From Deltaproteobacteria bacterium (GTDB lineage: Bacteria > Myxococcota > JACRCW01), in assembly GCA_016218805.1 (NCBI GenBank), contig JACRCW010000017.1:53-64052 (forward strand): DNA of 64,000 bases, in the 5' to 3' direction. The notes beneath the pieces are model-generated. The model searched no databases, was not told where the DNA came from, and was given only the letters and a program-made list of their open reading frames with translations. The translations under genes and the position numbers were made by a program. Each line of letters begins with the position of its first letter. Positions within the stretch are counted from its first letter, which is position 1. Positions 100 through 9,085 of the stretch are shown here, in pieces.

Positions 100-435
100 G
101 TGACCGGCGAACGACGGAGTGGCGCCAATCGGGGCGGCACCGACAAGGACTTGGCGATCGCCGGGATTGCGGTCGGTGGCGAAAGCGAGTGCCCCGATTC
201 AATCGCATTGCACGACCGGGAGAAGACGTGGGCGCACAGAAGGAAATCGCACCTCGACGAACCGTCCAGACACGCCCGCCGCCTGGGCCTGGATTCCAAG
301 GAGCGGAAGAGAATAGGGGCGGCCACCGTGCTCCCAAGCGGGCTTACCCTCGCGGAAACGCAGGCCTTGCTTGCGGCCGGGTACGTCGACGCCGAACGTC
401 GGCTTGCCGAACGTCGGGCGAGTAGCCGCGAGTAA
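100..435 (+). CDS. Hypothetical small protein (island cargo)
   Basis: The ORF has acceptable codon bias and no recognisable motif. Confidence 0.25.
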   Translation: MTGERRSGANRGGTDKDLAIAGIAVGGESECPDSIALHDREKTWAHRRKSHLDEPSRHARRLGLDSKERKRIGAATVLPSGLTLAETQALLAAGYVDAERRLAERRASSRE

Positions 436-532
436 TCGCGCCGCGGATCCATTACTCGCGGTTTTCGGGCTCCTGCGCGCGTGGTTGTCTGCATGCGCCG
501 GCACGCACCAAGCGCGCCGCGGAGACACGCCC

Positions 533-763
533 ATGACCAGCAACCCGCAGACCACGGACCGCGCCGCCCTCGTCGAGGCCGGGCTTATTTCAATCGAACA
601 GGCTTGCGAGCTGTCCTCGCTGGGACGGACCACGATCTACGCAGCGATGACGACGGGTGAACTGCGCTTCGCCCGGATCGGCCGCGCCCGCCGCATTCCC
701 CGCCGCGCACTGCTGGACTGGCTCGCGGCGCACGTCGTCGGCGGTGAGCAGTCCGCCGCCTGA
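533..763 (+). CDS. AlpA/excisionase-family HTH DNA-binding protein
   Basis: The motif LISIEQACELSSLGRTTIYAAMTTGELRFARIGRARRI is typical of HTH_17/AlpA/Xis proteins. The gene sits directly upstream of the primase, as in P4-like and PICI elements. Confidence 0.6.
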   Translation: MTSNPQTTDRAALVEAGLISIEQACELSSLGRTTIYAAMTTGELRFARIGRARRIPRRALLDWLAAHVVGGEQSAA

Positions 764-855
764 TCCCCGCAGCGCGCCAGCCTTTCGAATCCGGCAGCGC
801 GCAACCCTGCCAAAAGAAAAGGCGCGGGGACAAGCCGCGCCAGAGGACAACCCGC

Positions 856-2454
856 ATGGACACATCTACTACGACGACGACGACGACGGCGCCACCCGGA
901 CCCGACGCTGCGGGCCGCGTCCCGCGCGAATCACGCTCGCCAGCGGACGACCACGTGCACGCGGGCCCAGGAGGGCACCTCACCGATCTGGGCATTGCCG
1001 ACCGGCTTGTGCGTCGTCGTGGTGCGGACATGCGCCACTGCGCCGCGCGGGGGCAATGGCTCCTTTGGGACGGCCACCACTGGCAACCCGATCAACGCGG
1101 GTGCGCCATCCGCTTTGCCGCGGAAGAAGCGCGCGCCGCCACGACGGAGGCCGCCCGCTCTGGCGCTGACGCGAGGGTGCTCGCCGCCGCGAAGCGGCAG
1201 GAGGCGCACGGCCGCGTCTTGGGCGCGCTCGCCCTGGCCGCAGTGCACCCGCTGATCGCCGTGACCGCCGCGGATTTGGACGTGGACTCATGGCTGCTGA
1301 ACGTGCAAAACGGAACGCTGGACCTCCGCAGCGGCACCCTGCGGCCACACCGTCGTGACGACCTGCTCACGCACATGCTGCCCTTTGACTTCGACCCAGT
1401 GGCCCCGTGCGCGCGATGGGACCGCTTCCTCCACGAGGTCATGGACGGCCGGCAGGACTTGGTAGCCTTCCTCAGGCGCTGGTTTGGCTACTGCCTTACC
1501 GCGGACGTGCGCGAGCACGCGATGCTTTTCCTTGTCGGCGACGGGCGCAACGGGAAAGGCTGCCTCGTCGAAACGATCCAGCACGTGATGGGCCCGCGCT
1601 TGACGGGCGCCGCTCCCGAAGGCCTGTTGCTCCAGCAGCACGGCGCTCGCCACCCTGCTGACGTTCAGTTTCTCGCCGGCCGGCGCTTGATAGTCGCCAG
1701 CGAGGTTCCACAGGGTGCGGCGTTCAACGAGGAGCGAATCAAGAAGTTGACGGGGGGTGACACGTTGAACGCGCGTGGTATGCGGCAGGACTTCGCGGAC
1801 TTCACGCCCACGCACAAGATCGTCGTGCAGGCGAACCATCACCCGCGCGTGCGGGATCAATCGGCGGCGTTGTGGCGTCGCATGCGCGTGGTGCCCTTTG
1901 ACGTCTCGTTTGCTGGGCGCGAGGACCGCGGGCTGAAGGCCGCGTTGTGTGCGGAGGCGCCGGGGATCCTCGCGTGGCTGGTGGCAGGCTGCTTGGAATG
2001 GCAGAAGCACGGCCTGGGCGAGCCGCTGGCAGTGGCCCAGGCCACGGCCGGCTACCGGGCCGACGAGGACTTCCTTGGCCAGTGGTCGGCGGACTGGCAG
2101 TCGCGGTACCCGACGGCGGGGGAAACGAAAGCCGCGGACCTGCATGCCGACCTCCGGGCGTGGTGCGAACATCAAGGCGAGCACCCGCCGCGCCAGCGCG
2201 ACCTTGCCCGGGAACTCCACCGCCTGGGGTGGGTTCATCACCCAACGGCCCGGCCGGTCGCATGGAGCCCGCCGCAGTCTGCGCAGGCTGCGCAGTCTGA
2301 TTTGTATGACGCGGCTACACGCGCGCGTAAGGGCGTCAATGGGGAACAGACTGCGGCAGCCTGCGAGACTGCGGAAACCTGTCCGTCGGTGTCCGCTGGC
2401 GTCCAAACAGCCCCTCGCCCCTGGCCGGCCGATCCGGCGGAGGCCAAGGCATGA
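856..2454 (+). CDS. Phage/plasmid primase, P4 family, with C-terminal SF3 helicase/NTPase domain
   Basis: A Walker A motif (LFLVGDGRNGKG) is followed by a D5_N/primase-C-like region. At 532 aa it has the size and layout of P4 alpha-like primase-helicases. Confidence 0.8.
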   Translation: MDTSTTTTTTTAPPGPDAAGRVPRESRSPADDHVHAGPGGHLTDLGIADRLVRRRGADMRHCAARGQWLLWDGHHWQPDQRGCAIRFAAEEARAATTEAARSGADARVLAAAKRQEAHGRVLGALALAAVHPLIAVTAADLDVDSWLLNVQNGTLDLRSGTLRPHRRDDLLTHMLPFDFDPVAPCARWDRFLHEVMDGRQDLVAFLRRWFGYCLTADVREHAMLFLVGDGRNGKGCLVETIQHVMGPRLTGAAPEGLLLQQHGARHPADVQFLAGRRLIVASEVPQGAAFNEERIKKLTGGDTLNARGMRQDFADFTPTHKIVVQANHHPRVRDQSAALWRRMRVVPFDVSFAGREDRGLKAALCAEAPGILAWLVAGCLEWQKHGLGEPLAVAQATAGYRADEDFLGQWSADWQSRYPTAGETKAADLHADLRAWCEHQGEHPPRQRDLARELHRLGWVHHPTARPVAWSPPQSAQAAQSDLYDAATRARKGVNGEQTAAACETAETCPSVSAGVQTAPRPWPADPAEAKA

Positions 2455-2488
2455 GCGCTCCCTCCTCAGCGGACGTTGACCGCGACAA

Positions 2489-3082
2489 ATGACCGCGGAG
2501 GGGGAAGCAACGCGCGCGTCCAGCGATACGGATCGCCCCGCACCCGGGGCAGAAGGTGGCACCATGACGACCACAAGGAGCCGGAAACGGCCGCAAATGG
2601 CAGGACGGCAGACCCGCGCGTTGTCCGCGCTGCTGAGCCACCACACGGTGGTTGCCGCGGCACGCGCCGCAGGTGTGGGTGAGCGGACGCTCCGCAGGTG
2701 GCTAGCGAGCGACGCCGCGTTCCAAGCAGAGTACCGCGCCGCGCTCCGGGACCTGGCGTCCCAGATCGCGCTGCGCCCCGTCGTCGCGTCTGAGACGGCG
2801 CTGGACGTGCTGACTGCGGTGATGGAAGACCCGGGCACACCTGCTTCGGTTCGCGTTGCCGCGGCAGGGAAGGTCATCGACGCTGCGCTGCGCATCATTG
2901 AGAAGGACGGAACGCTGAACGCGCACGCTGACGGGGCCGCGACGGTGCCCGCGATCACCGGTGAGTTGTCGCCGGGTGTTGAGCCGCCAAGCGAAGCGGA
3001 CGCCCACGGCACGGACACAGGTGCGGTGCACCAGCTGCCGTTGAATCCCCTGCGCCGTAGCCGGGCAGGTGGTGCCGAATGA
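2489..3082 (+). CDS. HTH protein with terminase-small-subunit-like N-terminal motif (paralog 1)
   Basis: The motif TVVAAARAAGVGERTLRRWLASDAAFQAEYRAA matches the TerS N-terminal HTH pattern (A.AGYS..TA......L.). Its stop overlaps the start of paralog 2. Confidence 0.5.
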   Translation: MTAEGEATRASSDTDRPAPGAEGGTMTTTRSRKRPQMAGRQTRALSALLSHHTVVAAARAAGVGERTLRRWLASDAAFQAEYRAALRDLASQIALRPVVASETALDVLTAVMEDPGTPASVRVAAAGKVIDAALRIIEKDGTLNAHADGAATVPAITGELSPGVEPPSEADAHGTDTGAVHQLPLNPLRRSRAGGAE

Positions 3083-3480
3083 AGCCCAATGATCCCTCCC
3101 CACAGCTGCCCCGCCGGCAGGAAGCCGCCCTGATGGCGTTGCTGGAGAGCCCCACGCTGAACGCGGCCGCAGCGAAGGCCGGGTGCAGCAAAGCGACGCT
3201 GCGCCGCGGGTTGGCCGAGGAGGCGTTCCTGGCGGCCTACCGAGCGGCTCGGCGGGAACTGATGGGGCACACCGCGGCACGCCTCCAAGCAAGCGCTGCC
3301 GAGGCGCTGGACGCATTGCGGGCCATCATCGCGGACGCGGATGCGCCAGCCGCCGCACGCGTCACCGCAGCGCGCACCGTGCTGGAGATGGCGACACGCA
3401 CCGCGGAAACGGAAGAACTGAGTGAGCGCGTGGCAAAGCTTGAAGCTGCCGCGCTAGCGACGGAGGAAACATGGGCATGA
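3079..3480 (+). CDS. HTH protein, terminase-small-subunit-like (paralog 2)
   Basis: The motif TLNAAAAKAGCSKATLRRGLAEEAFLAAYRAARRE is a paralog of the upstream gene. The two overlap by ATGA. Confidence 0.5.
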   Translation: MKPNDPSPQLPRRQEAALMALLESPTLNAAAAKAGCSKATLRRGLAEEAFLAAYRAARRELMGHTAARLQASAAEALDALRAIIADADAPAAARVTAARTVLEMATRTAETEELSERVAKLEAAALATEETWA

Positions 3481-3689
3481 AACAGAGGGTAGAAGCGCTT
3501 GAGCGCCGCGCACCGAAACCACAGGCGCGGATCCACTACGTCGTCCGGAAGGCCGACGATGACGACACGTGCCCACATTGCGAGCGCGAACAAGCCACCG
3601 GGGTGCCGCCTGGCAAGGTTGTGCACCTCACGTGCATCCGTCGCCGGGCCAGCGAAGTGCCGGCACGGCCGCCCGACGAGCAAGGGTGA
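3471..3689 (+). CDS. Small protein with a CxxC motif (possible zinc-binding)
   Basis: The ORF is 72 aa with a coiled N-terminus and a CPHCE...LTC motif. Its start overlaps the end of the upstream gene. Confidence 0.35.
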   Translation: MGMKQRVEALERRAPKPQARIHYVVRKADDDDTCPHCEREQATGVPPGKVVHLTCIRRRASEVPARPPDEQG

Positions 3690-4147
3690 TCGCTGCCGTT
3701 CGCGGCGGACAACTCGCAGTCACGGCAGCGGCGCGCACCCTGGATCAGCGCTCGACCTCGCGCTGTGGGCATGCGGCATCCTCGGCCGCTTCCTTGGCCG
3801 CCTTGCGGGCTGCCTCTCCATTCTTTCCGGCTGCCTCCTCCGCCTTGCGGGTTTGCTTTCTGCTCAACCTGCGCCTCGCACACCTCTCGATCGCGCCCCG
3901 TGTTCTCCCGTGTCCGCCATGCACTGACATACGTCCCGGCAGAGGATCTCCGGTTCCGGTGCTGTGGACGCGGATGCAGCAAGTCAGGACCGGGGCAGGC
4001 GAGTCACCGCGGCCGAAGTAGACAAAAAGCACCATAGGGCTACAGTGAATGCTGGGCCGCCGGGGATGGCCGCTCAAGCTACGGCCTAGGTCGCTATCCC
4101 TCAAGTTCCGTCACCAGCCCCATGGGACGGATGCAACGAAGGGTACG

Positions 4148-4762
4148 ATGGCCACCGCTGCCGATGCTTCTGCGTTCCTCTTGGAGATTCAGCTCCAGCT
4201 GGACACGTACAAGCTTCACAAGTTGCTGTACTATGCACAAGGTTGGCACCTCGCGTGGTACGGCGAGCCCCTCTTCTCTGACAGGCTCGAGGCATGGGTG
4301 AACGGCCCGGTTGCGCCCGGCGTCTTCCATGAAACGCGCGGACTCCGCGAGGTGCGTGCGGTGCCGAGTGGAGACGGATACGCGCTTACTGAATGGCAAC
4401 AGCGCACCCTCCGCGAAGTGATGCGCGTGTACGGGGCTTTCTCTGGCGCGGACTTGGCCGAGCTCACCCATCAGGAGCCGCCGTGGAAAGCCGCCCGGGC
4501 AGGCCTTCCGCCTGATGCGAGATCAGACGCGGAAGTCGAACGTGCCGCCATGAAGCAGTTTTTTGCAGGCCTAGCCGCCATTGGAGAGGAAAAGGGGCGC
4601 ATTCCGCAAGGCGTAGTGGTTGGACTGCTGGCCTGGGCGAACATGAAGACCACCGAGCGAATGGACTTGGCACACCAAGACTTCGTCGACGCCGACGCGG
4701 ACGCCTATGCAAGGTGGATGAACGACGGCGGTGATGAGCCGTGGCCCGAACCGCGCGCCTGA
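4148..4762 (+). CDS. Panacea-domain (DUF4065, SocA/PanA-like) antitoxin-type protein
   Basis: The motif KLHKLLYYAQGWHLAWYGEPLFSDRLEAWVNGPV matches the Panacea-domain signature. The start was chosen at the internal Met. Confidence 0.7.
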   Translation: MATAADASAFLLEIQLQLDTYKLHKLLYYAQGWHLAWYGEPLFSDRLEAWVNGPVAPGVFHETRGLREVRAVPSGDGYALTEWQQRTLREVMRVYGAFSGADLAELTHQEPPWKAARAGLPPDARSDAEVERAAMKQFFAGLAAIGEEKGRIPQGVVVGLLAWANMKTTERMDLAHQDFVDADADAYARWMNDGGDEPWPEPRA

Positions 4763-5022
4763 GCAGGGCGTTCATCCGGCAATGCCACGACCTCAGGTGC
4801 CATGATCCCTCATGCGCTGTCGCCATTGCCCAGGTGGTGCGCGACCTCTGCGCATCCGAGCCTCTTCCCGGGGTGGGCGACACCCGTGCGTTGATGCCCC
4901 CGGTGGTGCACTGCCACGCACGTGCCCTCGAAACGCATTTTCGTTGGTTGCTCTACGAGTTCGATGACGAGCACGTTCACTTCCTTGGCATTAGCAGCAC
5001 CGACCCTTCGCCCAGGCAGTGA
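4741..5022 (+). CDS. ParE/RelE-fold toxin candidate, overlapping the Panacea gene
   Basis: A 22-nt overlap with the upstream gene is typical of toxin-antitoxin operons. The C-terminus RWLLYEFDDEHVHFLGI resembles the ParE/RelE (R.vYrVdde...V.iLrI.H) pattern, and codon bias is good. Confidence 0.4.
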   Translation: MARTARLSRAFIRQCHDLRCHDPSCAVAIAQVVRDLCASEPLPGVGDTRALMPPVVHCHARALETHFRWLLYEFDDEHVHFLGISSTDPSPRQ

Positions 5023-5549
5023 TTCCCTGGCTCCAAGCGGCTGGCGGATTCCCCGCCGCGCCCCGGGCGGGAAGCGCAGCCACGCCGCTGTTTCCTGCGC
5101 GTTGACGACGGCGGGCGTGCGCTTGTTTCCGCCGAGCGCGTGGACGCGGAGTTGGTGGACGATGTGGCGTCCCACGCAAGGTGAGACGTCGCCCGATGGG
5201 GACCCGCAGTCGCTGCCCGTCTATGCGCCGACAGTGACGGTGACCGCGTCGGGCGGCACCACTGCCTGAACGCCGCGCGCGTCTACGATTCGCACCCAGC
5301 CGAGGGCACCCCGTGCCAGCACTGCTATCTGGGCGCATCCGCGCGTGCGCGCCAGTTCCTCCAGGTGAAAATCTCCAGTGTGCGGATTGTTCCCGTCGGT
5401 CGGTCTGATGCGCCAAGCCAGGCACGGGTGAAGGCGTGCTCTTACCATCTGTCGTCGTCCTCTCTTGCGGGCGTTGCCGCAATCGGAATCCTACCTCGCC
5501 AGGCCTGAACAGCAAGAGGCGTCGATCAACTGGCCGCCCACGGTGCGCG

Positions 5550-6092
5550 CTACTTGACCACCTCCCGCTCGCGAGGCGTGGCGTTCTCTCCCTTGCGCTG
5601 GTCCTTCCACTTCTTGGCGCGTTCGCGTTCCACCTCCACCTCGCACACTTCCTGCTCCTGCCCGGTCTGGTCCATGCAAACCTTGACGTCATGATCGACC
5701 TGGGGTTCGTCGTCTTGGACCGGCGGCCGGTCGCTTCGGCGCTGGTAGTAGTCCGGGACCGGTGGTGCCTTCGGTGCGGTGAAGCGGGCGTCCAAACCGG
5801 TGTAGCCCAGCCGCACCAGCACGATGCCGATTCCGAGGACAGCGGCGCACGCCACGCACAAACCGACGAGCGCGGCGATGGGCAGGAGCCCCACGACCGC
5901 GCCGACGTAGGCTGTGGTGCCCACTGTTGGCGCCAAGGACACGGCAGCGGCAACCCCCACCAGCGCGCCGATGGCGGCGCCAGCCAAGCCTACCAGCCCT
6001 CCCGCGAGCCCGAATCCTCCCCACGTCGTGAACGCCGCGCCGAATGCCAGCTGCACCGCGGCCATTGCGACGTCGACTGATCCGGTCTCCAT
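5550..6092 (-). CDS. Glycine-zipper membrane protein with a charged C-terminal tail
   Basis: The N-terminus contains GGFGLAGGLVGLAGAAIGALVGVAAAV, a 2TM glycine-zipper motif. The C-terminus is acidic and basic. The start was chosen at an internal Met. Confidence 0.5.
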   Translation of the reverse strand: METGSVDVAMAAVQLAFGAAFTTWGGFGLAGGLVGLAGAAIGALVGVAAAVSLAPTVGTTAYVGAVVGLLPIAALVGLCVACAAVLGIGIVLVRLGYTGLDARFTAPKAPPVPDYYQRRSDRPPVQDDEPQVDHDVKVCMDQTGQEQEVCEVEVERERAKKWKDQRKGENATPREREVVK

Positions 6093-6415
6093 GCTGACCC
6101 CCGAGGTTGAACGCGGCCGGATGCTGCCGCGGTTCCGCGCTCCCGTCGACGTGCCGCACGTGCGACGCATGCTGACGCTGGCAAACGCTGCGCGCCGCGG
6201 CGGCAAACGTGTCGCGCCGTTCTCCGCCTCGGGGCTGAACGGCCATTCACCCGCTCGGGAAACGCGCTGCATGACGTATCCCATCCCCACGCATTGCCAG
6301 TCTGTCACGTCGTGCCCTGCCCCGGCTGTTACGGCGGGAACCCGCTGTAACGGATCTTGCCCGGGCGTGTCGCTTTGTGGTTGACGATGGGACGCAGCGT
6401 AATACACTGGGACGC

Positions 6416-7096
6416 ATGGAAACCCGCACCGTTGCCTACATCCGCGTGTCCACCGACAAGCAGGCCGACAAGGGCGTGAGCCTGGAGGCCCAGCGGGCGA
6501 AGGTGGAGGCCTACGCCACCCTCTACGATCTGGACATCGTGGACGTGGTGGTGGACGCGGGCGTTTCCGCCAAGACGCTGGACCGGCCGGGGCTCAACCG
6601 TGCGCTGGGGATGCTCAAGTCCGGCGCGGCTGACGCGCTGCTGGTGGTGAAGCTGGACCGCCTCACCCGCAGCGTCGTGGACCTTGGGACGCTGGTGGAC
6701 GCCTACTTCGCGGCGGGCAAGTGGGCGCTTCTGTCCGTGGGTGAGCAGATCGACACCCGCAGCGCCGCGGGCCGTCTCGTCCTCAACGTGCTGGCCAGCG
6801 TGAGTCAGTGGGAGCGCGAAGCCATCGGGGAGCGCACCAGCGCGGCGATGCAGCACAAGGCGTCACAGGGCGAGTACACCGGCGGTGGGGCGCCGTACGG
6901 CTTCCGCGTGGCGGCGGACGGCGTGCACTTGGACGAGGAACCCGCGGAGCAAGCGGTGCTTGATGAAGCACGCGCCCTGCGCGCCGCGGGGTTGTCCCTG
7001 CGCGCGGTGGCGGCGGAACTGGATCGGTTGGGCATGCGGTCTCGCGTGGGAAGCCCCTTCGCCGCTGTGCAGGTGGCGCGGATGGTGGCGGCATGA
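6416..7096 (+). CDS. Serine recombinase (resolvase/invertase family)
   Basis: The N-terminus VAYIRVSTDKQ carries the catalytic Ser motif, and there is a resolvase fold with a C-terminal HTH. Confidence 0.85.
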   Translation: METRTVAYIRVSTDKQADKGVSLEAQRAKVEAYATLYDLDIVDVVVDAGVSAKTLDRPGLNRALGMLKSGAADALLVVKLDRLTRSVVDLGTLVDAYFAAGKWALLSVGEQIDTRSAAGRLVLNVLASVSQWEREAIGERTSAAMQHKASQGEYTGGGAPYGFRVAADGVHLDEEPAEQAVLDEARALRAAGLSLRAVAAELDRLGMRSRVGSPFAAVQVARMVAA

Positions 7097-7440
7097 CGGC
7101 GCGGCCGGTGGACCTGGACGCGGTGCGCGCGTCGCGGAAGCGCCTGCGCGCCCTGGCGGCGGCGCACCCGCAGCTGCGCGGCGAGCCCGGCGCGAACAAC
7201 GTGAGCGGATGGGAAGCAACCCTGGCGACGGAGGAAGCACGAATGGCGACGCAACAGGTTGGGATCAGGCTGCCGGAGGAACTGGTGGCGCGGCTGGACC
7301 AGCACGTTGAGCGGATGCGCGCGGCGCAGCCAGGCCTTGAGGTGACCCGCGCGGATGCTGTGCGGGTGCTCCTGACCAAGGCGCTGGACGCGGAGGGCGG
7401 CAAGCCCGCGGCAAGGACCAAGAAGGGGACCCGCCCATGA
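7093..7440 (+). CDS. Ribbon-helix-helix (CopG/Arc-like) DNA-binding protein
   Basis: The motif VGIRLPEELVARLDQHVERMR...TRADAVRVLLTKAL is RHH-like. It shares ATGA overlaps with both flanking recombinase genes. Confidence 0.6.
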   Translation: MTARPVDLDAVRASRKRLRALAAAHPQLRGEPGANNVSGWEATLATEEARMATQQVGIRLPEELVARLDQHVERMRAAQPGLEVTRADAVRVLLTKALDAEGGKPAARTKKGTRP

Positions 7441-8570
7441 CCCGCGCGCGGCGTGGGCGCGGCGAAGGCGGCGTCTACCAGCGCCCGGACGGACTTTGGT
7501 CTGCGCAGCTGTCGCTTGGGTACGACGGGAACGGCGGTCGCCTCCGCCGCACGCTCTACGGGCAGTCCAAGCGGGACGTGCAAGCGAAACTGCGCGCCCT
7601 TCAGACGGACGCTGACGTGGGAACGCTTGTCGCCCCGGAGCGGCTCACCGTTTCGCAGTTTCTGTCGCGGTGGCTGGACTCGGCCAAGCAGACGATCCGG
7701 GCGACAACCGCTGCGCGGTACCGCGCCCTCATCCGCGTCAGCGTGGGCCCGCACATCGGCGGCATTCCTGTGCAGAAGCTCCAGCCGCTGCAGGTCCAGG
7801 CGCTCTACGCCAAGCTGGAAGCTGCGGGGCTCGCGCCCTCAACACGTCGTCAGGTGCACGCCATTCTGCACCGTGCGTTTGCCCAGGCGGTCCGGTGGGG
7901 GAACATGGTCCGCAATCCCTGTGACGCCGTGGACAAGCCACGCGTGCCCAAGCACCGGGTTGACGCACTGAAGCCAGAGGAGGTGGCGAAGCTCGCGGAG
8001 GCTGCCAGCGGGGACCGCCTCGCGGCGCTGTACGTGCTCGCCCTCTCAACGGGGATGCGGCAGGGCGAACTGCTGGGCTTGCAGTGGTCGGACGTGGATC
8101 TCCCTGGGCGCGCCGTTGTCGTGCGGCACTCGCTGGAGGAAATCGCGGGCAAGCTGCGCCTGTCCGAAACCAAGTCCGGGAAGGTGCGTCGCGTTGACCT
8201 GGACGCGCACACCGTGGATGCGCTGCGGGAGCACCGGAAGCGCATGCTGGCGGAGGGTCACCCGGGGCCCTGGGTCTTCCCGGACACGGAGGGGAACCCG
8301 CTGCGCAAGTCCAACCTCGTCCGCCGGTCCTTCAAGCCGCTGCTGAAGCGCGCCGGGCTGCCGGACATCCGCTTCCACGACCTGCGCCACGCGGCTGCCA
8401 CGCTGATGCTCCTGCAGGGCGTCAACCCGAAGGTGGTCCAGGAGCGCCTTGGGCATGCGCAGCTAACCATCACGCTGGACGTCTATGGTCACGTCCTGCC
8501 CACCATGCAGGCCGACGCGGTGGCGAAGATGGACGCCTTTTGGCGGAGCGCGGCAGTTACTACTGCCTAA
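7437..8570 (+). CDS. Tyrosine integrase (phage integrase family)
   Basis: The protein has an N-terminal SAM-like domain and a C-terminal catalytic domain with R...HDLRHAAATLML...Y. It reads towards the tRNA fragment. Confidence 0.9.
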   Translation: MTRARRGRGEGGVYQRPDGLWSAQLSLGYDGNGGRLRRTLYGQSKRDVQAKLRALQTDADVGTLVAPERLTVSQFLSRWLDSAKQTIRATTAARYRALIRVSVGPHIGGIPVQKLQPLQVQALYAKLEAAGLAPSTRRQVHAILHRAFAQAVRWGNMVRNPCDAVDKPRVPKHRVDALKPEEVAKLAEAASGDRLAALYVLALSTGMRQGELLGLQWSDVDLPGRAVVVRHSLEEIAGKLRLSETKSGKVRRVDLDAHTVDALREHRKRMLAEGHPGPWVFPDTEGNPLRKSNLVRRSFKPLLKRAGLPDIRFHDLRHAAATLMLLQGVNPKVVQERLGHAQLTITLDVYGHVLPTMQADAVAKMDAFWRSAAVTTA

Positions 8571-8693
8571 CTACTGCCAATGGGGCGGAAAGTGGCGAAC
8601 CGCGGCGGTTGGTGGCGGATGCGTGGCCCGTCCGGTTGACGTCGTCAGCGAACGCGTGCGGCCGTCCGCGGCAGAAAGCGGAAACCCGCCCGT

Positions 8694-8740
8694 TCGGACT
8701 CATAATCCCTAGGTCGGCGGTTCGATTCCGCCCCCCGCTA
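8694..8740 (+). other. Partial tRNA 3' fragment (anticodon loop CTCATAA with CAT, T-arm GGCGG-TTCGATT-CCGCC, acceptor 3' strand). Candidate att core of the island.
   Basis: The T-arm is canonical, but no matching 5' acceptor or D-arm could be found, so this is not a complete tRNA. Integrating elements produce exactly this kind of partial 3' copy. Confidence 0.45.
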
Positions 8741-9085
8741 CACAGGAATCCATCGCATCCAGGTTCAATGCAGTCGCCGCGCCGGGGCCAGCCCGGGGCG
8801 GTGACCTTTCATCCGCACGCGGGTTGGGTTGCCCGCGGTTCTCACGGCGGGCGGAACCCAACGCCGCGCTTCATTCACCATGAAATCCCGGTGGCGGCTT
8901 CTCATGCCTTCTGCTAGTTTCACCCCATTCGCCGCGGGCTCGTGGGCAGACCGCTCCAGCGTGGCGACGGAAAGGGGACCGATCATGCGTGCCGCCGCCA
9001 TCACGTACGCCGTGACCGCCCCGTCCGTTCGCTCCTGAGCGTCGACGGAAACCTGCAAGGAAAGCCGTAGAGCGGGCGCCACAGA

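Follow-up and report, generated by a model that had tools for sequence, protein, structure and literature searches.

Toxin-antitoxin (TA) pairs whose antitoxin carries a Panacea domain (PanAT pairs, made up of PanA and PanT) include examples with toxins of the RelE/ParE superfamily. ParE was listed among the known toxin domains adjoining Panacea, and the accompanying Dataset S1 holds at least four RelE/ParE-type PanT clusters in antitoxin-then-toxin order, all marked 'notest': pT15/T14 (HigB-2/YoeB/ParE-like), pT31/T28, pT59/T48 (Txe/YoeB, Rickettsia), and pT70/T59 (RelE/ParE, haloarchaea) (Kurata et al. 2022, PMC8832971). Here, we describe a gene pair of this type, panA and panT, in a 64,000-nt stretch (hereafter, the window) of contig JACRCW010000017.1 from the metagenome-assembled genome (MAG) of a 'Deltaproteobacteria' bacterium. 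The original prediction for this DNA regarded a Panacea antitoxin paired with a ParE-fold toxin as seldom reported; in view of the clusters above, that rarity was overstated. The pair type was already catalogued in 2022, and we found no experimental validation of it in the literature. What is new at this locus is a further toxin family absent from Pfam, together with a natural contrast between the Panacea-bearing and Panacea-less antitoxins of that family. We consider it probable that panA and panT form a two-gene type II TA module of the PanAT kind that is carried as cargo by an integrative, phage-satellite-like island.

The locus resembles the PanATs of Kurata et al. in that its Panacea protein has no N-terminal DNA-binding domain, the antitoxin gene comes first, the two genes overlap briefly, and the partner is a small protein of the RelE/ParE superfamily. 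It differs from them in its toxin, which belongs to a separate and very small family that has no Pfam or CDD match and has so far been seen only in metagenomes and MAGs; in its host, a 'Deltaproteobacteria' MAG of 70% GC; and in its PanA, which has an extra two-helix tail. In the PanA of Corynebacterium doosanense, two C-terminal helices (Phd-C) added to the Panacea core neutralise Doc, and they neutralise the toxin by themselves when stabilised; the same study proposed Panacea as a sensor (Ernits et al. 2023, PMC10440598). Our structural model predicts the same architecture for the window protein, a Panacea core plus two C-terminal helices, although the toxin of C. doosanense is Fic/Doc and the one here has a RelE/ParE fold. 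The type VI system SocAB of Caulobacter, the source of the Pfam family name, has the Panacea domain in common with our pair but a toxin of unrelated type. Unlike YefM-YoeB, RelBE, DinJ-YafQ, and ParDE, in which the antitoxin is Phd/YefM, RelB, or ParD, the pair described here has a Panacea antitoxin, and its toxin family, unlike YoeB itself, ends in a PPVPxDE tail and does not conserve the YoeB catalytic residues.

The panA-panT gene pair and the predicted fold of its products

Both genes lie on the forward strand with a 22-nt overlap, exactly where the original prediction had placed them (Table 1), and their translation is likely coupled through this overlap. An AAGGG Shine-Dalgarno-like motif is located 4 nt upstream of the ATG of panA, and the homologues begin with MA(K/T)AAD; a start at position 4049, which would give the longest open reading frame (ORF), was dropped on these grounds. 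The GTG start of panT was fixed because the N-terminus that it gives, MARTARLSRAF, matches those of homologues (MARTARLTPRF in P0099 and MARTPRLSRRF in P0100). The GC content by codon position fits the frames of both genes and is lowest at position 2 in the toxin frame; since an antisense ORF at 4810-5175 has the same low-GC position 2, composition by itself is not decisive. The promoter candidate given in Table 1 was the sole consensus match within positions 3600-5600, against a mean of 0.1 in shuffled sequence.

PanA matched the Pfam family SocA_Panacea (PF13274, DUF4065) over profile positions 1-113 of 113, with E=1.7e-19 and 71.2 bits against a cut-off of 25.7, so the Panacea signature that had been recognised in the motif KLHKLLYYAQGW holds at the profile level. 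It also matched phrog_1281 (E=1.2e-31), and an identical protein (P0001) is annotated as 'DUF4065 domain-containing protein, MAG Deltaproteobacteria bacterium'. An AlphaFold2 model built on a 65-sequence alignment had a mean predicted local distance difference test score (pLDDT) of 92.7 and consisted of a globular core and a C-terminal extension in which pLDDT fell to 62-80. The conserved columns (K25, L27, Y29, Q31, W33, G53, P54, E110, and W113) all lie inside the core. Most relatives of PanA align over residues 1-142 only, and the C-terminal tail varies among PanA clades. No structural neighbour of the PanA model was found in the PDB.

For the toxin candidate, AlphaFold2 gave a model with a pLDDT of 92 and a predicted TM-score (pTM) of 0.82 from an 18-sequence alignment. 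Its topology is beta-alpha-alpha-beta-beta-beta-beta, and it contains the N-terminal strand, the two helices, and the antiparallel beta-sheet of at least three strands by which a RelE/ParE fold is recognised. A Foldseek search against the PDB returned almost exclusively toxins of the RelE/ParE superfamily at TM-scores of 0.65-0.72, including YoeB, YafQ, M. tuberculosis RelE2/RelK, HP0894, and ParE. The string YEFDDEHVHFLGI, which the original prediction had taken for a ParE/RelE-like C-terminus, maps to the two final beta-strands in the model, and the fold that it had proposed from this string is the one that the high-confidence model adopts. The ranking of structural neighbours has no power to separate ParE from the RelE/YoeB mRNases.

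A word-index search for homologues of the 93-aa protein returned nothing. When phmmer was run exhaustively over 1.84 billion cluster representatives, 16 homologues were found (E<1e-3; best, 2.3e-10); they are 65-114 aa long (90-96 aa in 14 cases), and most align over nearly their whole length. A further 26 protein clusters came from a profile search. None of these homologues or clusters is functionally named or has a Pfam domain. Nearly all of them come from metagenome assemblies, and the family was not found in the phage, plasmid, and IMG/VR collections searched. The family alignment has six invariant columns: L42, P43, D47, P54, W69, and P89.

The window copy is rich in histidine (seven residues) and cysteine (five), which together make up 12 of its 93 residues. 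A CH-x3-CH-x3-C pattern (CHDLRCHDPSC; residues 15-25, positions 4783-4815) lies in helices 1-2, and an HCH motif (residues 57-59, positions 4909-4917) lies on a strand. The former is missing from the other family members; the latter occurs otherwise only in L001/P0112. Judging from the sequence, this richness may hint at metal or redox sensitivity.

Recurrence of the pair and exchange of its partners

The 93-aa ORF is conserved beside Panacea homologues, as the original prediction had implied: in three metagenomic contigs (L001, L005, and L011), the Panacea-then-toxin order recurs, with the toxin gene directly downstream. P0002, at 55% identity the closest homologue of PanA, has behind it a 96-aa gene that overlaps by 16 nt; the product of this gene has 38% identity to the toxin of the window and the run MPPVVHCHAR in common with it. 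The best toxin homologue (P0097) follows a 199-aa Panacea protein, also with a 16-nt overlap, and PanAs of the P0018 type precede an 88-aa member of the toxin family (4-nt overlap; 60.6 bits to the family hidden Markov model, HMM). Behind P0025, a PanA of more distant kinship, lies a 93-aa gene for which a match to ParE_toxin (PF05016) was precomputed. The PanAs paired with this toxin family have a rough C-terminal motif in common, h-x-x-W-[LM]-x-x-G. The window PanA has it as AYARWMNDGG, the P0008/P0018 group as STLRWLETG, and the PanA of L005 as VGSWLRGE.

Of 149 loci at which PanA relatives occur, only the window, L001, L005, and L011 have a member of the toxin family after PanA. The partners downstream were otherwise a 125-160-aa family (70 loci), Fic (16), Doc (14), PemK (1), and others, among them another small protein without a Pfam match (5 loci) that resembles the toxin in size and layout. 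Such a spread of partners matches the description of Panacea as hyperpromiscuous. The PanA-toxin pair has no conserved third gene. The 125-160-aa partner, which also has no Pfam match, occurs in Actinomycetota, Acidobacteriota, and other phyla (loci L012-L163); the copy at L014 3518-4000, for example, includes RLWGFIAAGVFYVLWWDADH. Among the PanT clusters of Kurata et al. are large ones that are uncharacterised, and this partner may be one of those.

For most of the other toxin family members, the gene upstream encodes a Panacea-less protein of 56-62 aa and overlaps the toxin gene by 4-22 nt (L006-L008, L092/L093, and L094/L095), and from this we conclude that partners have been swapped. These stand-alone putative antitoxins have the motifs P-x-P-[ED]-D and ERG[ED] and a C-terminal helix, matched nothing in Pfam or the PDB, and appear to form an undescribed family. 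Their C-termini (EELRRLAETGEWP and EELAEWERTGELP) resemble the tail motif of the PanAs, and their ERGE motif recurs in other PanA tails (for example, DELERGEG in P0038 and P0028). Comparison by hhalign of the stand-alone antitoxins with the ELERGEG-type tails gave P=5e-4 and a probability of 31%, a result that is no more than suggestive. When profiles of the PanA tails and of the stand-alone antitoxins were searched against PDB sequences, all matches were at chance level, and the searches with the window tail detected no similarity to Phd-C or to any solved antitoxin.

Toxicity and neutralisation

Gene structure, domain identity, fold, conservation of the family, and synteny are shown by the analysis; toxicity, neutralisation, the part of PanA responsible for it, and the biological role are inferred. 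In the mechanism that we propose for the TA module, PanA would bind the toxin directly, chiefly through its C-terminal tail ('linear neutralisation'), with the Panacea core serving as a scaffold or as the sensor part. If PanA were lost or inactivated, the free toxin would cause growth arrest, which would stabilise the island and might abort phage infection. The tail-mediated route is favoured because of the precedent of Phd-C on a Panacea core (Ernits et al. 2023), and it is by this analogy that the tail of PanA would be the neutralising element. As to the activity of the toxin, ParE-like stoichiometric poisoning of gyrase is our tentative first candidate, ribosome-dependent mRNA cleavage is a possible second, and some other activity is the more doubtful third.

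Several observations weigh against a functional TA module of this kind. The toxicity of the 93-aa protein and its neutralisation by PanA are assumed from the fold and the gene layout. The best Pfam match of the toxin, to YoeB_toxin (PF06769), had E=0.045 and 14.2 bits against a cut-off of 27, and membership of neither this family nor ParE_toxin (PF05016) was reached. The catalytic residues of YoeB are Glu46, Arg65, His83, and Tyr84, and an HMM alignment to YoeB indicated that they are not conserved in the toxin family: members differ at the Glu46-equivalent column (R/P/A/E/D), the family consensus has Leu at the Arg65 column, where the window copy has Arg68, and His-Tyr is missing from the C-terminus. 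Even within the family, the window copy is atypical; its isoelectric point (pI) is 6.6 against a family median of 10.2, and it ends in DPSPRQ in place of the usual PPVP tail, so it could be attenuated. The stand-alone antitoxins showed no significant hhalign match to tails of the window type (P=0.036, probability 1.4%), and no PADLOC model matched PanA or the toxin at E<=1.

Because the gathering scores of PF05016 and PF06769 were not reached, the 'ParE' label of the original prediction should read 'RelE/ParE superfamily'. Four of 18 family members touched Pfam toxin models below threshold (two ParE_toxin, best E 0.023, and two YoeB_toxin), and YoeB chains in the PDB aligned with the window toxin over its full length at E ~1. 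All of the sub-threshold matches point to one superfamily, RelE/ParE.

The observations on the catalytic residues bear most directly on an alternative in which the protein has kept the RelE/ParE fold but lost its toxicity, making it a degenerate or repurposed partner (a regulator or adaptor) and the pair something other than a functional TA system. None of the six invariant family columns coincides with a RelE/YoeB catalytic position, which, with the variable Glu46-equivalent column, the failure to reach the Pfam toxin thresholds, and the departure of the Cys/His-rich window copy from an otherwise basic family, speaks for such a loss. However, ParE toxins also have no such catalytic residues, the window gene is intact and of full length with every family-invariant residue retained, and the strict gene order and the overlap with an antitoxin-type partner are kept in every context seen. 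We therefore regard this alternative as improbable.

PanA might instead act like SocA and, without sequestering the toxin, deliver it to ClpXP as a proteolytic adaptor. The SocA name of the Pfam family and a partial match to the NCBIfam SocA_antitoxin model (E=4.2e-10, residues 15-62) agree with such a role; the SocA equivalog (NF047745), however, scored only 39.6 bits against a cut-off of 190, and the similarity is confined to the shared Panacea N-terminus. The partner of PanA has a predicted RelE/ParE fold, whereas SocB is not known to be a member of RelE/ParE. Moreover, those PanAT pairs that have been validated to date form stable complexes (PMC8832971), and an adaptor role of this kind is very improbable here.

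A chance origin of the 93-aa ORF in 70% GC DNA, where long spurious ORFs abound, or its displacement by the antisense ORF at 4810-5175 as the true gene, might have been read from the blank word-index search and from the low-GC codon position 2 of the antisense ORF, but it is refuted by the 16 homologues and 26 clusters of matching length and conserved N-terminus, by the independent calling of the same gene on other contigs, by the predicted fold with its pLDDT of 92, and by the absence of a family match for the antisense ORF; the homologues, the codon-position GC, and the fold model show panT to be a real gene.

The island and its possible role in defence

The TA region has the lowest GC content of the island (62.5-63.5%, in a window of 70%). 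No capsid or tail genes were found in the island (371-8570), and its gene set resembles that of a phage satellite of the phage-inducible chromosomal island (PICI) type rather than that of a prophage (Table 1).

Table 1. Coordinates of the panA-panT pair, its parts, and the neighbouring features of the island
Feature	Position	Strand	Description
panA	4148..4762	+	Panacea-domain antitoxin candidate, 204 aa; ATG 4148, stop 4760-4762
panT	4741..5022	+	93-aa toxin candidate, RelE/ParE fold, small family absent from Pfam; GTG 4741, stop 5020-5022
Overlap of panA 3' end and toxin 5' end	4741..4762	+	22 nt
Panacea core, aa 1-143	4148..4576	+	Globular; pLDDT 97-98
PanA C-terminal extension, aa 144-204	4577..4759	+	Loop, helix 154-180, helix 184-192, flexible end
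Sigma-70-like promoter candidate	4019..4046	+	TAGACA-16-TACAGT; ~100 nt upstream of panA; consensus match alone
HTH_17 excisionase-like gene	371-763
D5_N primase-helicase	856-2454
Small-terminase-like (TerS-like) gene	2489-3082		phrog_4044, E=3e-8
Membrane-like protein, 285 aa	5550-6407	-	Cargo; Gly/Ala-rich hydrophobic stretches resembling transmembrane segments
Serine recombinase	6377-7096
Ribbon-helix-helix (RHH) regulator	7093-7440
Tyrosine integrase	7437-8570
tRNA-Met-like 3' fragment	8690-8745	+	~120 nt past integrase stop; CTCATAA anticodon-loop-like motif (CAT)

The tRNA-Met-like fragment has a perfect T-arm, GGCGGTTCGATTCCGCC, followed by CCCCGCTACA, and it is probably an incomplete copy of a tRNA, located at one of the island's attachment sites. 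Neither ARAGORN nor Rfam called a tRNA at the fragment, and no complete tRNA was found in the window; likewise, no attachment-site repeat for the left end that matches the fragment and no left border of the island were found within the window.

The gene for the 285-aa membrane-like protein, which had no Pfam or PHROG match, sits between the TA module and the serine recombinase. The codon-position GC of the ~530 nt 3' of the toxin gene (5023-5550) is biased, in phase with the toxin frame or with the frame antisense to it. None of the ORFs in this segment has a family match, and the ORFs at 4810-5175 (-), 5221-5448 (-), and 4922-5269 (+) were blank in Pfam; the segment could be what is left of a gene in decay, or the bias an artefact of composition. 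These three ORFs and a fourth at 4991-5953 (-), also without a family match, are regarded as spurious.

An anti-phage role for the pair is only an analogy. In a bolder reading, which we think rather unlikely, the tail of PanA would be a short antitoxin captured by fusion to Panacea, with Panacea as the trigger sensor, and the module on its PICI-like satellite would be a switch for abortive infection that phage activates, and not just an addiction module. If the tail was captured in this way, the stand-alone and Panacea-fused antitoxins would offer a natural 'before and after' comparison for the sensor role proposed for Panacea. In other respects, the pair is an ordinary cargo TA module on a mobile island. 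A single toxin family that occurs both with a minimal antitoxin of ~60 aa and with a Panacea-plus-tail antitoxin offers a compact test case, in which one can ask what Panacea adds: sensing, stability, or nothing.
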